From contig OZ242318.1 of the NCBI GenBank assembly GCA_965208105.1, forward strand, positions 4,000,001-4,064,000: a stretch of DNA of 64,000 nt, read 5' to 3'. The notes under the pieces are model-generated. The model did no database searches. It was not told where the DNA came from and was given only the letters and a program-made list of their open reading frames with translations. Source of the stretch: Candidatus Latescibacterota bacterium. Lineage in GTDB: Bacteria > Latescibacterota > UBA2968 > UBA8231. The translations under genes were made by a program, and so were the position numbers. The number at the start of each line of letters is the position of its first letter. Positions within the stretch are counted from its first letter, which is position 1. Shown piece after piece: positions 1-30,937 of this stretch.

Positions 1-863
1 GCGACCGCATCAAGACCGACCGCCGCGATGCTGTGTCTCTGGTGCGGCTTTTCCAACACGGCGAGTTGACCCCCGTGTGGGTGCCCGACGAAGCGCAGGA
101 GGCGATGCGCGATCTGGAGCGCTGCCGGGAAGACTTCAAGCACGCCGAGCGCCGCGTGCGCCAGCGGCTGAACAGCTTCTTGCAGCGCCACGGCCGGATC
201 TACTCCGGGCGCAGTCGCTGGACCCAAGCCCACTTTCGCTGGCTGCAGACCCAGCGCTTCGATCATCCGGCCCAGCAGATCGTCTTTCAGGAATACGTGG
301 ACGCGGTACAGGAAGCCCAAGGTCGGATCCAGGGGTTGGACCAGGCCCTGCAGCAGGCGCTGGAGGGATGGTCTTTGGAAGGGGAGACGCGGGCTATGAG
401 GGCGCTGCGCGGGGTAGACACGCTCACCGCGGTTACGACCCTGGCCGAGTTGGGGGACCTCACCCGCTTTGACTCGCCGCGCCAACTGATGGCCTTCGTC
501 GGTCTGGTCCCCAGCGAGCATTCCAGCGGCTCCCGCCAAAAGCGAGGGGCGATCACCAAGGCGGGCAACGCCCACGTGCGGCGCGTGCTGGTGGAAGCCG
601 CCTGGTGCTATCGCTTTCCCGCCCGCAAGACGGCCGCCTTGCAACGACGCGCCGAACAGACCGCACCCCCCATACAGGCCATCGCCTGGAAGGCACAGAA
701 ACGCCTGTGTGGGCGCTATCGACGGCTGAGTGGGCGAGGGATGCCGAAAAACAAAGTCTGCACCGCGATCGCGCGGGAGCTTTTGGGTTTCATCTGGGCC
801 ATCGCCTGGGAGCAGAAACGCCCCGGCCGCCTCGTGGCCAGGAGGCCTCGGATCGCCGCCTGA
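1..863 (+). CDS. IS110-family transposase/recombinase, 5'-truncated by the window edge
   Basis: Frame is open from base 3 (DRIKTDRRDA motif). C-terminal Transposase_20-type motifs: ELGDLTRFDSPRQLMAFVGLVPSEHSSG, ITKAGN..VRRVLVEAAW, TAIARELLGFIWA. Confidence 0.96.
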   Translation, partial: DRIKTDRRDAVSLVRLFQHGELTPVWVPDEAQEAMRDLERCREDFKHAERRVRQRLNSFLQRHGRIYSGRSRWTQAHFRWLQTQRFDHPAQQIVFQEYVDAVQEAQGRIQGLDQALQQALEGWSLEGETRAMRALRGVDTLTAVTTLAELGDLTRFDSPRQLMAFVGLVPSEHSSGSRQKRGAITKAGNAHVRRVLVEAAWCYRFPARKTAALQRRAEQTAPPIQAIAWKAQKRLCGRYRRLSGRGMPKNKVCTAIARELLGFIWAIAWEQKRPGRLVARRPRIAA

Positions 864-916
864 TAAGCTCATCGTCTCAGAAGCCGGCATAGGACCTTTG
901 CTCATGTAAATCGAAA

Positions 917-1086
917 CGGGACAGAAGGGACCGGTCAGGAGAATCCTCGAAGACACTATGAGGCGCCTATCAGGCTGACCCTCGACTCTAGATTGAGGCC
1001 GCTCCGCGACGCACCCAGGACAGGCGGTAACCAACCCGCGAATATCAGTCGGATCAACCGTCGCTACAGCGTCCCTTCTGTTCCCG
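917..1086 (+). ncRNA. Putative bridge/seek RNA of the IS110 element (3' non-coding region)
   Basis: Closing stem CGGGACAGAAGGGAC (917-931) pairs with GTCCCTTCTGTTCCCG (1071-1086). Internal segments match the target (GACACTA 952-958, CTAG 988-991) and the IS right-end junction (ATATCAGT 1042-1049 = 1152-1159). Confidence 0.75.
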
Positions 1087-1134
1087 AACAAACTCATGCA
1101 AAGATAACACCCGAAATGACCACCCCGGAGGGGG

Positions 1135-1140
1135 TTGACA
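1135..1140 (+). promoter_or_regulatory. Outward-facing -35 box (TTGACA) near the IS right end; probable circle-junction promoter half
   Basis: Perfect TTGACA about 17 nt from the inferred IS end. Junction promoters are established for IS110 circles. Confidence 0.55.
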
Positions 1141-1156
1141 ACCGTCAATACATATC

Positions 1157-1321
1157 AGTGTCCCGTCGCAGAAATATGTCGCCATTTTTCCGCCGATCCA
1201 TCCCGGCTCACGGCGTTGCCTTCACTCGCCGTACACCACTGGTACGACTCGCTCAGGCGCCTTGTGAGCCGGGCGCCTCGGCGGCCCAATTGGGTCAACC
1301 TATCTCTGCGACGGGACACTA
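1157..1321. mobile_element. MITE-like repeat, copy 1
   Basis: TIRs AGTGTCCCGTCGCAGAAATA / TATCTCTGCGACGGGACACT (19/20). Near-identical in reverse complement to 30770-30937. Confidence 0.88.
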
Positions 1322-1567: not shown

Positions 1568-2407
1568 ATGACTGAAGAAGAGTTGTACCTGTTCGATACG
1601 CTCGGTTTTCTCCGGGTGGAAAACGTGCTCGACGAGGAGACCGTTGCCCAAGCCCAAAGGGGGGCGCAGAAGATCGTTGACGACTGCGGGCACCTCCTGG
1701 AACAACCGCCGGGATCCGGCTACGGGGACAAGTACAAAAACGCGATTGTCCACGACAAGGTGTTGGAGCGGATCGCCTATTCGCCGGTCATGCTGGATTA
1801 CGCCTGCCACCTGACCAACAATATGCCGCGCCTCCTGGACGGCACCATGATGGTCCAGAATTCCGACCACGGGTTCCACAACTTCCATCTGCGCAAGGAT
1901 ATCCTCAGTGAAATGCACGAGGACGCCCCGCGCTTTTATACCGACGTGGTTCACCGCCGGATTTATTGTGACTGGGCCACCTTCTTCGTCTACCTGACCG
2001 ACGTGCGCCCGGGGGACGGGGGCCTGCTGGTGGTGCCCGGAGCCCACAGGGCCAGCTTCATCTATCCCCCCGAGCTGTTCTATGCGAAAGACGCCTATCC
2101 GGTGGACCCGGAAGAGCGTCAAAAACTGGGATTCATCAACGTCACCGCCAACGCGGGGGACATGATCATCATGCCGCTGCGCCTGAACCACGCGGCCCTG
2201 CCCTGGCTTCCGGTGGACCGGGACCGGATCTTGATGTTCTACACCTACCGGCCCCAGTTCTACTGCTCCGAGCCTACCGACCAATGGTTGGCCGCCGCCG
2301 CCGCCGCCGGCATCCAGCTGGATGCCGAGACCATCGAGCTGGCCTCGATGAAGGAGAAGGGAGAGCTGAAGGATATCGTCAAGAGCCACCTCGGCATCGA
2401 CGCATGA
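1568..2407 (+). CDS. Phytanoyl-CoA dioxygenase (PhyH)-family Fe/2OG dioxygenase
   Basis: LYLFDTLGFLRVENVL, VYLTDV..GDGGLLVVPGAH, AGDMIIM..RLNH motifs. Confidence 0.85.
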   Translation: MTEEELYLFDTLGFLRVENVLDEETVAQAQRGAQKIVDDCGHLLEQPPGSGYGDKYKNAIVHDKVLERIAYSPVMLDYACHLTNNMPRLLDGTMMVQNSDHGFHNFHLRKDILSEMHEDAPRFYTDVVHRRIYCDWATFFVYLTDVRPGDGGLLVVPGAHRASFIYPPELFYAKDAYPVDPEERQKLGFINVTANAGDMIIMPLRLNHAALPWLPVDRDRILMFYTYRPQFYCSEPTDQWLAAAAAAGIQLDAETIELASMKEKGELKDIVKSHLGIDA

Positions 2408-2706
2408 GCCGGACGAAGGGCCCTTGGATCTTTCCGCGCGCCTGTGACAGCCATCCCGGCAACCCCTGCTCCTCCCGCTTCCGTCCGGCGGTCAACCGCA
2501 GGTGGGCGGCCATCAAGAAACAGATGTCCGCTATCGACGCCGCCTTCCTGCTCCACGGCGGCGGCCTGACCCGCGACGGCGAGACGCGCAAATGCGAATT
2601 CCGGTGGCTTCGACGCACCTGTTCCGCTGAGCTGATCGTCAGACCGTGCCGTCTTCCAGATCGACCCGGGGACTCCCCCCAGCAACCACCTGCGGCGCCG
2701 GAATGA
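2404..2706 (+). pseudogene. Truncated, degenerate calcineurin-like metallophosphoesterase
   Basis: ATG overlaps the PhyH stop (ATGA). Has CDSH (DxH motif) and FLLHGGGLTRDG (GDL motif changed to GGL), then loses similarity. Confidence 0.6.
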
Positions 2707-4679
2707 AGCTGGAACCGAACCGGGATGAGACCCCTCGCATCACCCTGCGGGGGTTGGTTCTGGGCCTCCTGACCATTGCCGCCACCTTCTACTTTTACAT
2801 CGGCGAGATTCAGGGAACGGGGATGCTGGGCCATGCAGTGAGCTCCCAGCTTCCGGTGGTGGTGTACGTTCCCTTCGTCCTGTGGCTCTTCCTGAACGTA
2901 GTGGCGAAACATCTGTGTCCCCGGCTGGCGCTGCGCCGGGGGGAATTGCTGACCATCTTCGGGATGCTCTGGGTGGTGGGCACGATTCCGGGCTACGGCT
3001 GGATGGGGTACTGGGTGCTCACGCTGGCGGCGCCGGCGTTCTACGATTCCGCCGAAAATCAGTGGACTGAGATCCTTTTCGACTTCCTGCCCTGGCACGT
3101 CTTTCCCGACCCCTCGGCGCGGGTCATCGACACCTTCTGGCTCGGCCTGCCGGAAGGTGCGCCGGTGCCCTGGGACGGTTGGATCGGGGCGACGGGGCAG
3201 TGGTTGAGTGTTTCGGTGGCCATGGTTGGGTTCGGCCTCTGCATGGTTGTTCTGCTGCAAAGGCAATGGGAAGCCGGGGAGAAGTTGACCTTTCCCCTGG
3301 CGCAGCTCCCGTTGGACCTGACCGCCGGATTCGACGGCCCCCGCCGGATGCCGGCGATCTTCCACTCGCGTCTGTTCTGGATCGGATTCGCCGCTGTTTT
3401 CCTCCCCGTCCTGTACAACATCGCCACTTACTTCATGGCCGGCCTGCCGCGGATCGGCATCTACTGGGATCTCTACAACATCCGCCTGGGAGAGGGATTC
3501 CCGACTCTGCACTTTCGCATCATGCCGCTGGTGGTAGCGGTAACCTACCTCTGTCCCCTCGATATTCTGGCCAGCATGTTCCTCTTTCACCTCCTGGCGA
3601 TTCTCAAGGGGGCGGCCATGACGCGCATCGGCTTTACCGTCGGCACCTCCGGGGAGCCGCTGCATTGGAACGAGATCCTGCACCTGGAAAGTTATGGCGC
3701 CCTCATCTTCATTGGGCTCTGGACCATCTGGCTGGCCCGAGGGCATTTGCGCGCCGTCTGGCGGCAAGTGCGATCGGGCGCCGGCAGAGGTGCAGAGGTC
3801 TCCCGCTACCGCTGGGCGCTGTCCGGTTTGGCGATCAGCGGCGGCTATGTGCTGATCTGGATGGTGGCGATCGGCATTAGCCTGAAGGCGGCCCTGCTGA
3901 TTTTTTCCATAGCGGTCCTCACCTACCTGGTGGTAGTCAAACTGATCGCCGCAACCGGCTGCGCCTATCTGCTCACCGACCCCGGGCATATCAAGGGAAT
4001 CACCTTCGTAGACCAGCTGTTGGGCACCGCCCTCCTGTCCCCTCGCAGCTATGTCGGCTTCCGCCTGTTCAGCAGCACCACCTTTTTCGGCAACCTGCGC
4101 ATTCCTGCCTGGCCTTCCCTCCCCCACCTGCTGCGCATATTCTCCATGAAGCGACAACCGGGATGGATCACGGCACTGGTATTGGCCGCTTTCCCGGTGG
4201 GCTTTCTGGTGGCCGCATGGGCGACCCTGGAGATCGCCTACACCGAGCAGGCCCTGGTCTTCTTTTCCGACAGCGTCGCACCGGGATACAGCGAGACCGC
4301 GCGCAACCTGAACAACCCGAAAACATCCGATCTCGGACGGTGGCTCGTATTCCTCGCCGGCGTCGCGGAGTCGGCGGTGCTGGCCCTGTTGCGGGCGCGC
4401 TTCCACTGGTTTCCGTTGCACCCGCTCGGGGTCGCATTTCAGTACACCATCGTCGGCATCGTATTCTGGTTCAGCCTGTTTCTGGTTTGGGCGGTGAAGG
4501 TGTCGCTGTTGCGCTACGGAGGCAAAGCGGCCTACCTCGCCGGCAAGCCGTTCTTTTACGGCCTGGCGGTGGGGTACGTGAGCGGGATCATCCTCTCGGT
4601 CGGGGTCGACTTCATCTGGTTCCCCGCCGCCGGCCACAACGTCCATTCCTGGTTCGTCGAGATCAAGCCGTTGATCTAG
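2703..4679 (+). CDS. Polytopic membrane protein, DUF6785/DUF6784-like (putative transporter)
   Basis: Many TM segments. Motifs QW...EKLTFPLAQLP, RFHWFPLHPLG, LRYGG...KPFFYGL. Paralog at 22197-24185. Confidence 0.8.
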   Translation: MKLEPNRDETPRITLRGLVLGLLTIAATFYFYIGEIQGTGMLGHAVSSQLPVVVYVPFVLWLFLNVVAKHLCPRLALRRGELLTIFGMLWVVGTIPGYGWMGYWVLTLAAPAFYDSAENQWTEILFDFLPWHVFPDPSARVIDTFWLGLPEGAPVPWDGWIGATGQWLSVSVAMVGFGLCMVVLLQRQWEAGEKLTFPLAQLPLDLTAGFDGPRRMPAIFHSRLFWIGFAAVFLPVLYNIATYFMAGLPRIGIYWDLYNIRLGEGFPTLHFRIMPLVVAVTYLCPLDILASMFLFHLLAILKGAAMTRIGFTVGTSGEPLHWNEILHLESYGALIFIGLWTIWLARGHLRAVWRQVRSGAGRGAEVSRYRWALSGLAISGGYVLIWMVAIGISLKAALLIFSIAVLTYLVVVKLIAATGCAYLLTDPGHIKGITFVDQLLGTALLSPRSYVGFRLFSSTTFFGNLRIPAWPSLPHLLRIFSMKRQPGWITALVLAAFPVGFLVAAWATLEIAYTEQALVFFSDSVAPGYSETARNLNNPKTSDLGRWLVFLAGVAESAVLALLRARFHWFPLHPLGVAFQYTIVGIVFWFSLFLVWAVKVSLLRYGGKAAYLAGKPFFYGLAVGYVSGIILSVGVDFIWFPAAGHNVHSWFVEIKPLI

Positions 4680-4753
4680 TGTCGCTTTGCTGTTTAGTTT
4701 TGTTGCGGTTGAGTCAAGTGCAACGCCAAACGCCATATGGAGGTGGCGCCAAA

Positions 4754-30769: not shown

Positions 30770-30937
30770 CTAGTGTCCCGTCGCAGAGATAGGTTGACGA
30801 AATTAGGCCGCCGAGGCGGCAGGCTCACAAGGCGCCTGAGCGAGTCGTACCAGTAGTGTACGGCGAGTGAAGGCAACGCCGTGAGCCGGAATGGATCGGC
30901 GGAATAATGGTGACATATTTCTGCGGCGGGACACTAG
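30770..30937. mobile_element. MITE-like repeat, copy 2 (intact, CTAG at both ends)
   Basis: CTAGTGTCCCGTCGCAGAGATA ... TATTTCTGCGGCGGGACACTAG (20/22). Reverse complement of copy 1. Confidence 0.9.

Follow-up and report, generated by a model that had tools for sequence, protein, structure and literature searches.

IS4321 and IS5075 reportedly have as their target the terminal inverted repeats that bound Tn21-family transposons, an observation attributed to Partridge and Hall in 2003, and their target is said to lie inside the 38-bp repeats of these large transposons, not at a MITE tip together with its duplication. For IS1111 of Coxiella burnetii, 20 of 21 copies were found in QMITE2 (Wachter et al. 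2018, PMC5896051). That element and the one described here are both of the IS1111 type, and both sit almost only in a resident MITE that serves as a multi-copy landing site. They differ in where the site lies: in QMITE2 it is a GTAG palindrome inside the MITE, 10 to 20 bp from the end, whereas ours straddles the MITE boundary. The excerpts of the Coxiella paper available to us give no guide reading; the transposase here is 379 aa long.

Guide RNAs of IS1111-type elements, termed seekRNAs, were described for ISEc11, ISPa11, and ISKpn4 (Siddiquee et al. 2024, PMC11187229). According to the available parts of that report, these elements carry their non-coding region downstream of the transposase gene and have 7-bp and 3-bp extensions, as does ours. 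Both also have the same guide order, a complement of the top strand lying 5′ of a match to the bottom strand with an overlap at the insertion point, and in both, natural retargeting is seen among relatives. Unlike the RNA predicted here, those seekRNAs were shown by co-purification and reprogramming; the targets of the three elements, given as a linear 12-mer, REP sequences, and attC sites, also differ from ours. The bridge RNA of IS621 (Durrant et al. 2024, PMC11208160) has, like the RNA described below, a target loop and a donor loop with a shared core dinucleotide, AG being CT on the other strand, and 93% of IS1111 elements were predicted to carry a bridge RNA in the right end. In contrast, IS621 has its RNA in the left end, with the guides in the opposite order to this element's (PMC11208160, in the sections available). 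Protein similarity to IS621 is low (8wt6, E value 2.2e-5) and confined to the C-terminal domain.

A link between an IS110-family element and a short non-autonomous element with solo copies elsewhere is known from ISPpu9 and MITEPpu9 (PMC12288879), and this arrangement resembles ours. As far as the accessible text of that paper goes, MITEPpu9 bears end boxes like those of an IS, and the ISPpu9 enzyme is proposed to move it, whereas here the MITE is the target, has unrelated ends, and is flanked by its own TA. In a limited literature search, we found no report of an IS110/IS1111 target composed of a MITE tip and its duplication.

Anatomy and class of the element

The window, by which we mean the whole 64,000-nucleotide stretch analyzed, corresponds to positions 4000001 to 4064000 of a single 4.85-Mb contig with 61.6% G+C. 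It starts inside a transposase gene, the C-terminal 287 codons of which occupy positions 1 to 863 (+ strand), with the stop at 863; the product belongs to the DEDD transposases of the IS110 family. The gene start lies 277 nt upstream of the window, at position 2224 of locus L001 (+ strand), and the left end of the element, AGACCTT, is at L001 2109, equivalent to window position −391. The element thus runs from L001 2109 to window position 1156 and measures 1548 bp, with a leader of 115 nt 5′ of the open reading frame (ORF).

Its 379-aa transposase matches PF01548 (5.6e-13; DEDD, RuvC-like, N-terminal) and PF02371 (1.7e-22; C-terminal) and scores 263 bits against NF033542, "IS110 family RNA-guided transposase," for which the cutoff is 140. 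IS1111 elements are described as having subterminal repeats of about 11 to 13 bp, 7-bp and 3-bp extensions, a non-coding region downstream of the transposase gene, the C-terminal motif GL-P----S(t)G, and transposases of 330 to 350 aa (PMC11187229, in the parts available). The element follows this layout closely. The translation contains the motif as GLVPSEHSSG, and the non-coding region that follows the gene (864 to 1156, + strand) is 293 nt long, against 115 nt on the 5′ side, extends to the right end, and is conserved in all 12 copies of the element in this genome. At the left end, the 7-bp extension AGACCTT is followed by the subterminal repeat ATGTATTGACGG; at the right end, the repeat CCGTCAATACAT (1142 to 1153, + strand) is followed by the 3-bp extension ATC, which ends at 1156. 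The two repeats are 12 bp long and match perfectly in 12 of 12 copies. Only AG is repeated at both junctions, and no target duplication is left once one copy of AG is assigned to the element. The transposase exceeds the quoted length range, which is descriptive and has no strict force. Taken together, the sequence features identify an active-looking, IS1111-type member of the IS110 family. A circle-junction promoter is convincing in relatives (TTGACA, 17 nt, CATAAT) but not here, where a TTGACA −35-like box is present at 1135 to 1140 (+ strand) and the spacer is 2 nt longer.

The predicted guide RNA

The first-pass annotation had described the 3′ non-coding region as enclosed by a stem, with bounds of 917 and 1086. 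A minimum-free-energy fold combined with covariation agrees, within a few nucleotides. The predicted bridge/seekRNA core occupies 918 to 1084 (+ strand), and its outer helix, P1 (918-931/1071-1084), encloses two arms. The remaining helices, all on the + strand, are P2 (938-941/1002-1005), P3 (945-948/995-998), P4 (960-963/980-983), P5 (1006-1011/1059-1064), and P6 (1024-1027/1036-1039). The fold energy taken alone is unremarkable, with a z-score of −1.3. In Rfam, the non-coding region matched no family at E values up to 10; the six matches returned are at chance level and unrelated.

The fold is carried by comparison with relatives. We used the best 80 of 235 confirmed matches, whose transposases are 56 to 85% identical. 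From these, 53 elements could be delimited by their ends; the other 28 of 81 loci lack recognizable ends or enough flank. An alignment of 38 distinct core sequences, called A1, from which L058, L063, and L076 were left out for length, was analyzed with RNAalifold. Of the 35 pairs in the consensus, 19 show compensatory changes. The share of cells that pair is 93.9%, compared to 35 to 45% when the partners are slid; none of 500 shuffles reaches the observed covariation score. Across the same best 80 of 235 relatives, the stems are conserved or compensated and four loop strands vary. The covariance analysis proposed in the first-pass annotation thus supports a non-coding RNA fold, and we consider it supported that the region encodes a bispecific bridge/seekRNA, a molecule predicted here from its gene.

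Contigs from three RNA libraries cover parts of the transposase gene and non-coding region in 27 of 30 bins (X15), 13 bins (X16), and 15 bins (X18); such contigs show neither transcription nor RNA ends. Among the contigs of four sequencing runs aligned to the locus, none contains a circle junction of the element.

Reading the guides

Three motifs had been pointed out inside the stem, and we find all of them there: GACACTA at 952 to 958, CTAG at 988 to 991, and ATATCAG at 1042 to 1048. In the fold, they fall into two loops. The loop of arm 1, between P3 and P4, reads as the target loop. Its 5′ strand holds the right-target guide AGACACUA (951 to 958, + strand), whose GACACUA is complementary to the top strand T/AGTGTC (a slash marks the insertion point). 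On its 3′ strand lies the left-target guide ACUCUAGA (985 to 992, + strand), composed of ACUCU, the core AG, and A, and having the same sense as the left flank; CUCUAGA (986 to 992) matches the left flank (T)CT, AG, and A, the first base of the left end. Pairing with the target is short, 7 nt on the right and 2 to 3 nt plus the core on the left. Among the 12 copies in this genome, the left-target guide matches the CT in all 12 and the T at −3 in 4.

The loop of arm 2 reads as the donor loop. AUAUC plus the core AG (1042 to 1048, + strand) on its 3′ strand forms the left-donor guide, with the same sense as the right end ATATC plus AG. A tentative right-donor guide, CCAGGAC (1015 to 1021, + strand), occupies the 5′ strand and is complementary to the left end GACCTT at 4 of 7 positions. 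The earlier proposal of target and donor guides around a CT/AG core is therefore supported for the target loop and the left-donor guide, which can be read in this way. We also considered GGACA in the donor loop as a complement of TGTCC in the MITE; this reading was set aside because relative L002 keeps GGACA with a different target.

How much weight can matches of this length bear? By our own arithmetic, a single strand of 293 nt should contain a given 7-mer about 0.02 times and CTAG about 1.1 times. The caution in the first-pass annotation that such matches might be fortuitous is thus justified for CTAG, which by itself is at chance level, and not for the other two motifs, each of which is individually unlikely. 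We regard the matches as above chance because they lie on opposite sides of conserved loops and because the loops covary with the flanks across the family.

This covariation was measured on 45 distinct insertions among the 53 delimited relatives, again drawn from the best 80 of 235; the target-guide comparison took in only elements with at least 10 nt of right flank and at least 6 nt of left flank. The strand homologous to 950 to 958 predicts right-flank positions 3 to 8 in 200 of 270 cases. The permutation mean was 84 and the maximum was 118, and 0 of 10,000 permutations did as well. Likewise, the strand homologous to 985 to 989 equals the last five left-flank bases at 132 of 225 positions (permutation mean, 79; maximum, 101; 0 of 10,000 as good). 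Three elements, L035, L041, and L053, fit only with a register shift of one base and were scored as mismatches. Guide positions therefore change with the target among homologues, as had been anticipated, and it follows from this family-wide covariation that the loop specifies (T)CT/AG-TGTC for this element. One relative among the best 80 of 235, L003, shares this element's right-target guide and yet is inserted at TCT/AGGTGTTCC, with 1 of 6 positions matching; its transposase gene is truncated.

The donor loop was compared with the element ends in the same best 80 of 235 relatives. The left-donor guide agrees with the right end at 104 of 105 positions, and the variants ATAAC (L008) and ATACC (L020) follow their own right ends. 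For the other donor guide, which had been predicted to match the left end, the outcome is mixed: 100 of 147 positions agree across the family (permutation mean, 89.5; 1 of 10,000 as good), but the guide is only weakly readable in our element, at the 4 positions given above. In L063, the left end is AGAG, and CUCU stands at the position of the right-donor guide.

A Bryobacterales relative (L028 to L034) has a U opposite the core G in its right-target guide (UGGCUGUUA); its right junction is AG in five of six copies and AA in one.

The target MITE and the insertions in this genome

At the right junction, CCGTCAATACAT-ATC stops at 1156 and is followed by AG (1157 to 1158) and TGTCCCGTCGCAGA. The first-pass annotation had this end meeting a MITE exactly at the AG, and the junction reads so, at 1156/1157. 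MITE copy 1 (1157 to 1321, no strand assigned) consists of the A of its left TA at 1157, a body, GTGTCCCGTCGCAGA...TCTGCGACGGGACAC, at 1158 to 1319, and a right TA at 1320 to 1321; the AG at 1157 to 1158 is the core dinucleotide also found at the left end of the element. Copy 2 (30770 to 30937, no strand assigned) is unoccupied and, as reported earlier, intact at the target, with CTAGTGTCCC at both ends. The other side of the insertion had only been predicted, since the window begins within the element. In the upstream DNA, the left flank ...cctcggtCT stands immediately before AGACCTT-ATGTATTGACGG. Because it ends in CT directly before AGACCTT, removal of the element restores CT/AGTGTCCC, the expected sequence.

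The target is indeed a multi-copy MITE. It is about 165 bp long and TA-flanked, with terminal inverted repeats of 23 nt, and in being short, multi-copy, and bounded by inverted repeats and TA, it qualifies as a MITE. The genome contains 198 MITE-repeat ends, defined by no more than two mismatches to GTGTCCCGTCGCAGA, and 81 complete MITEs of 150 to 175 bp. TA is present on both sides in 42 of the 81, and CTA...TAG is present in 31. Outward from the tip, the flanking bases favor A (172 of 198), T (161), and C (149), and the fourth base out is random. The simplest reading of these flanks would be a TA duplication in a CTAG-like site. A mechanical ORF list gives only frames of 109 and 54 aa over the 165-bp unit.

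When the 198 ends were paired in a search for an autonomous parent, no element of 0.4 to 3 kb emerged, save two neighboring MITEs. A resident IS630-family element of 1166 bp, with nine full copies (for example, 2041413 to 2042578), sits in CTAG with TA, and its transposase is split over two frames; as a candidate source of the MITE, it shares this kind of site, and its repeats, GTGCTCTGTTAA, have only GTG in common with the MITE. Two of its copies (392927 and 756789) are inserted at the TA beside a MITE tip. A 97-nt repeat found in about 17 places (for example, genome positions 852 to 948) is 87 to 88% identical to the MITE interior (window 1190 to 1286). It lacks the tips of the MITE and could represent a second family of related repeats.

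A BLAST search of the locus against the genome returned 12 copies of the element. The 379-aa frame is intact in 10 of them, and five encode an identical protein. Each left flank is unique, and all 12 end in CT before AGACCTT. A MITE tip follows the right end in 10 copies, always as CT/AGTGTCCC, with AGTGTCCCGTCGCAGA... after ATC; seven of these are at one terminal inverted repeat and three at the other, and the right end of the element faces the MITE in all 10. All 12 copies read CT/AG...ATC/AGTG, that is, one site and one orientation, as is usual for IS1111. The two copies outside MITEs have the near-cognate right flanks AGTGTTGT and AGTGGTCG, also given as AGTGTTGTGTCC and AGTGGTCGCTGC. Mapping of all copies, suggested in the first-pass annotation as a way to reveal unrelated targets, therefore places 10 of 12 at MITE tips and the other two at near-cognate sequences. 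Two diverged copies, with right ends at genome positions 2703344 and 2924965, have CCAUAG in the left-target guide, yet their own left flank is CT.

The copy at genome position 3964970 (3964970 to 3966520), one of the two outside MITEs, does not count as a clean near-cognate site. To its left is a nitrilase-like ORF's stop codon, and to its right is the interior of a truncated IS630-family element; because the two flanks are not contiguous, only the right one is informative. That they are not original neighbors points to a deletion or recombination at the element. Elsewhere, at 3931331 to 3931643, a decayed 3′ fragment of the element, about 92% identical, covers the stretch between the donor loop and the right end, both included. 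This fragment adjoins a degenerate MITE and has neither target loop nor transposase gene.

Proposed mechanism and alternatives

Very probably, this is an IS1111-type element whose bispecific guide RNA is set to the roughly 8 bp CT/AGTGTC around an AG core. The 5′ strand of the target loop, AGACACUA, would pair with the top strand T/AG-TGTC, and the 3′ strand, CUCU-AG-A, would pair with the bottom strand of (T)CT-AG. The donor loop would read the element's own ends, with AUAUC-AG for the right end and a weaker AGGAC for the left. We expect the RNA to be made and to be bound by the transposase, and recombination would proceed through a circular intermediate. In this genome, the 8-mer CTAGTGTC would arise almost only when the TA-duplicating MITE of about 165 bp enters a CTAG-like site, the core AG combining the A of the TA duplication with the MITE's first G. 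Since the 8-mer arises there, the element would insert between the T and the A of a MITE tip, on either side of the MITE, and point its right end at the MITE.

The distribution of this 8-mer bears directly on the MITE bias. Of the eight bases of CTAGTGTC, one is a host C, two are the MITE's TA duplication, and five are the first bases of the MITE, GTGTC. The genome has 87 free copies, of which 74 are MITE tips and 13 lie outside MITEs. Adding the 10 tips already occupied brings the perfect sites to 97, 84 of them MITE tips; no copy of the element occupies any of the 13 perfect sites outside MITEs. One of the latter lies in the window at 4676 to 4685 (CTAGTGTCGC), outside any MITE. The bias is accounted for by the 8-mer alone because 74 of 87 free sites are MITE tips. 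Under equal use of the 97 sites, the probability that all 10 perfect-site copies fall in MITEs is about 0.24 by our own arithmetic, and recognition beyond the 8-mer is therefore neither supported nor opposed.

These counts invite a more modest account, in which RNA guidance is right and the link to the MITE is a by-product of an abundant 8-mer, with no adaptation or benefit. MITE tips make up 85% of the free perfect sites, so 10 of 12 copies need no extra preference, and the element is also found at two non-MITE sites. We nonetheless consider this account unlikely, since in at least three other genomes the relatives are directed at tips of MITEs that differ from this one but are likewise TA-flanked and multi-copy, a repeated retargeting that is hard to see as an accident, and since most of the family (best 80 of 235) retains the target T/AG, in which TA is the duplication made by the MITE.

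Among the best 80 of 235 relatives, 44 distinct insertions were compared. In 8 of them (L001, L005, L013, L020, L021, L025, L032, and L067), a short element with inverted repeats starts at the right flank and closes with TA; as a control, 13-mers from a point 30 nt deeper gave 2. Some of these relatives, from other phyla, sit at the tips of other TA-flanked MITEs. The tip pattern TAGGAG(C/G)CTGTCG(A/G) matches the L021 genome 264 times and the L005 genome 27 times, the matches often being paired at a spacing of about 153 nt, and TAGCGCAGGGCTCG has 51 matches in the genome of L067; controls read backwards gave 0 in all three. Tip matches number only 2 and 3 in the genomes of L013 and L020, and there are none for a second pattern in that of L032. 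From the multi-copy tips in the L021, L005, and L067 genomes, we conclude that at least three other MITE families are used likewise by relatives. It is possible, if short of probable, that this is a habit of the clade: IS1111-like elements with ends AGACAT.../...ATATC and target T/AG may have had their right-target guides repeatedly reset, in different phyla, to the tips of the TA-duplicating MITE that happens to be plentiful in a given host, and may live as parasites on the junction of TA and tip. The suggestion in the first-pass annotation that MITE tips act as a safe haven, that is, as harmless landing sites, may hold; the MITE bias itself needs no more than the 8-mer.

A second alternative is that the element and the MITE form one composite or modular unit, in which the IS110-type enzyme carries the MITE along as a hitchhiker, an idea put forward for ISPpu9 and MITEPpu9; their adjacency would then reflect co-transposition in place of targeting. 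ISPpu9 offers a precedent, as a small module lying downstream of its transposase gene moves both together with that gene and on its own (PMC12288879, in the excerpts available), and similarity to our locus continues through the MITE in 9 of 11 other copies. Against this, the MITE stands in both orientations beside the element, seven and three times; most of the 81 complete MITEs lack the element, and 74 cognate tips are free; the MITE ends, GTGTCCCGTCGCAGA, are unlike those of the element, and the MITE is flanked by its own TA; and two copies of the element have no MITE. Alleles lacking the element are also informative. In sequencing run X16, one contig joins L001 2108 to 3657, skipping exactly 1548 bp with a 2-base overlap, and this IS-free allele of the same locus keeps the MITE tip. 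It is moderate evidence because the shorter side is only 24 nt. In run X5, one contig with a shorter side of 58 nt joins 2107 to 3823 with three other letters between, and both the element and the MITE are absent. A composite unit is thus highly improbable. Just as improbable is the idea that the guide matches are chance and the transposase protein itself recognizes the MITE inverted repeat: the matches are only 4 to 7 nt long, CTAG is expected about once in 293 nt, and the RNA is known here from sequence alone, but the loops covary with the flanks over 45 insertions at many different targets (0 of 10,000 permutations; best 80 of 235), the stems are kept by compensatory changes while the loops vary, and RNA guidance was demonstrated experimentally for ISEc11, ISPa11, and ISKpn4 (PMC11187229, in the parts available).

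With RNA guidance as the preferred reading, the locus is a clean but expected case of RNA-guided transposition. Targeting of MITEs by insertion sequences and seekRNA/bridge RNA guidance are both already known, and the current picture of IS110/IS1111 biology is unchanged. What the locus offers is a fully readable natural guide of the IS1111 type whose target is known and abundant and for which free sites exist in the same genome. Its relatives (best 80 of 235) supply a comparative set for guide rules, with 45 insertions and about 40 distinct RNAs from a little-studied clade with 379-aa transposases. Within this clade, again among the best 80 of 235, right-target guides are long (7 to 9 nt) and left-target guides are short (2 to 5 nt), and for engineering, these elements are candidate orthologues with short, asymmetric target requirements. 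The locus also illustrates that a target can be a composite made by the insertion of another transposon, in this case a host base, a TA duplication, and a repeat tip.

A nested relic

Beyond MITE copy 1 lies part of a related guide-RNA region, decayed and lacking a transposase. Its first half (1322 to 1432, − strand) is 85% identical to 877 to 985 of the active element, and its second half is found on the − strand to the left of the element, at about 2040 to 2107 of L001. In an alignment, the two halves are continuous once the MITE and the element are removed, and the A1 profile finds them separately, with E values of 4.8e-10 and 0.031. The order of events was relic, then MITE, then insertion of the element into the tip of that MITE. 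The relic's guides, CUGCACUA and AAGUUAGAC, differ from those of the active element.

The MITE had entered the TA of the relic's own left-target guide, which reads GU-UA-GAC against CU-CUAG-AU in the active element. Because a left-target guide must contain a copy of a CTAG-like or TTAG-like site, the guide gene would itself be a landing site for the MITE that it hunts. Such a reciprocal effect is possible, the relic being the one case here. In a gammaproteobacterial relative (L022 and L023), about 77 nt of the element's own last bases, including a second right end, are repeated after its end, and the MITE tip AGGAGGCTGTCGG follows only after this repeat.
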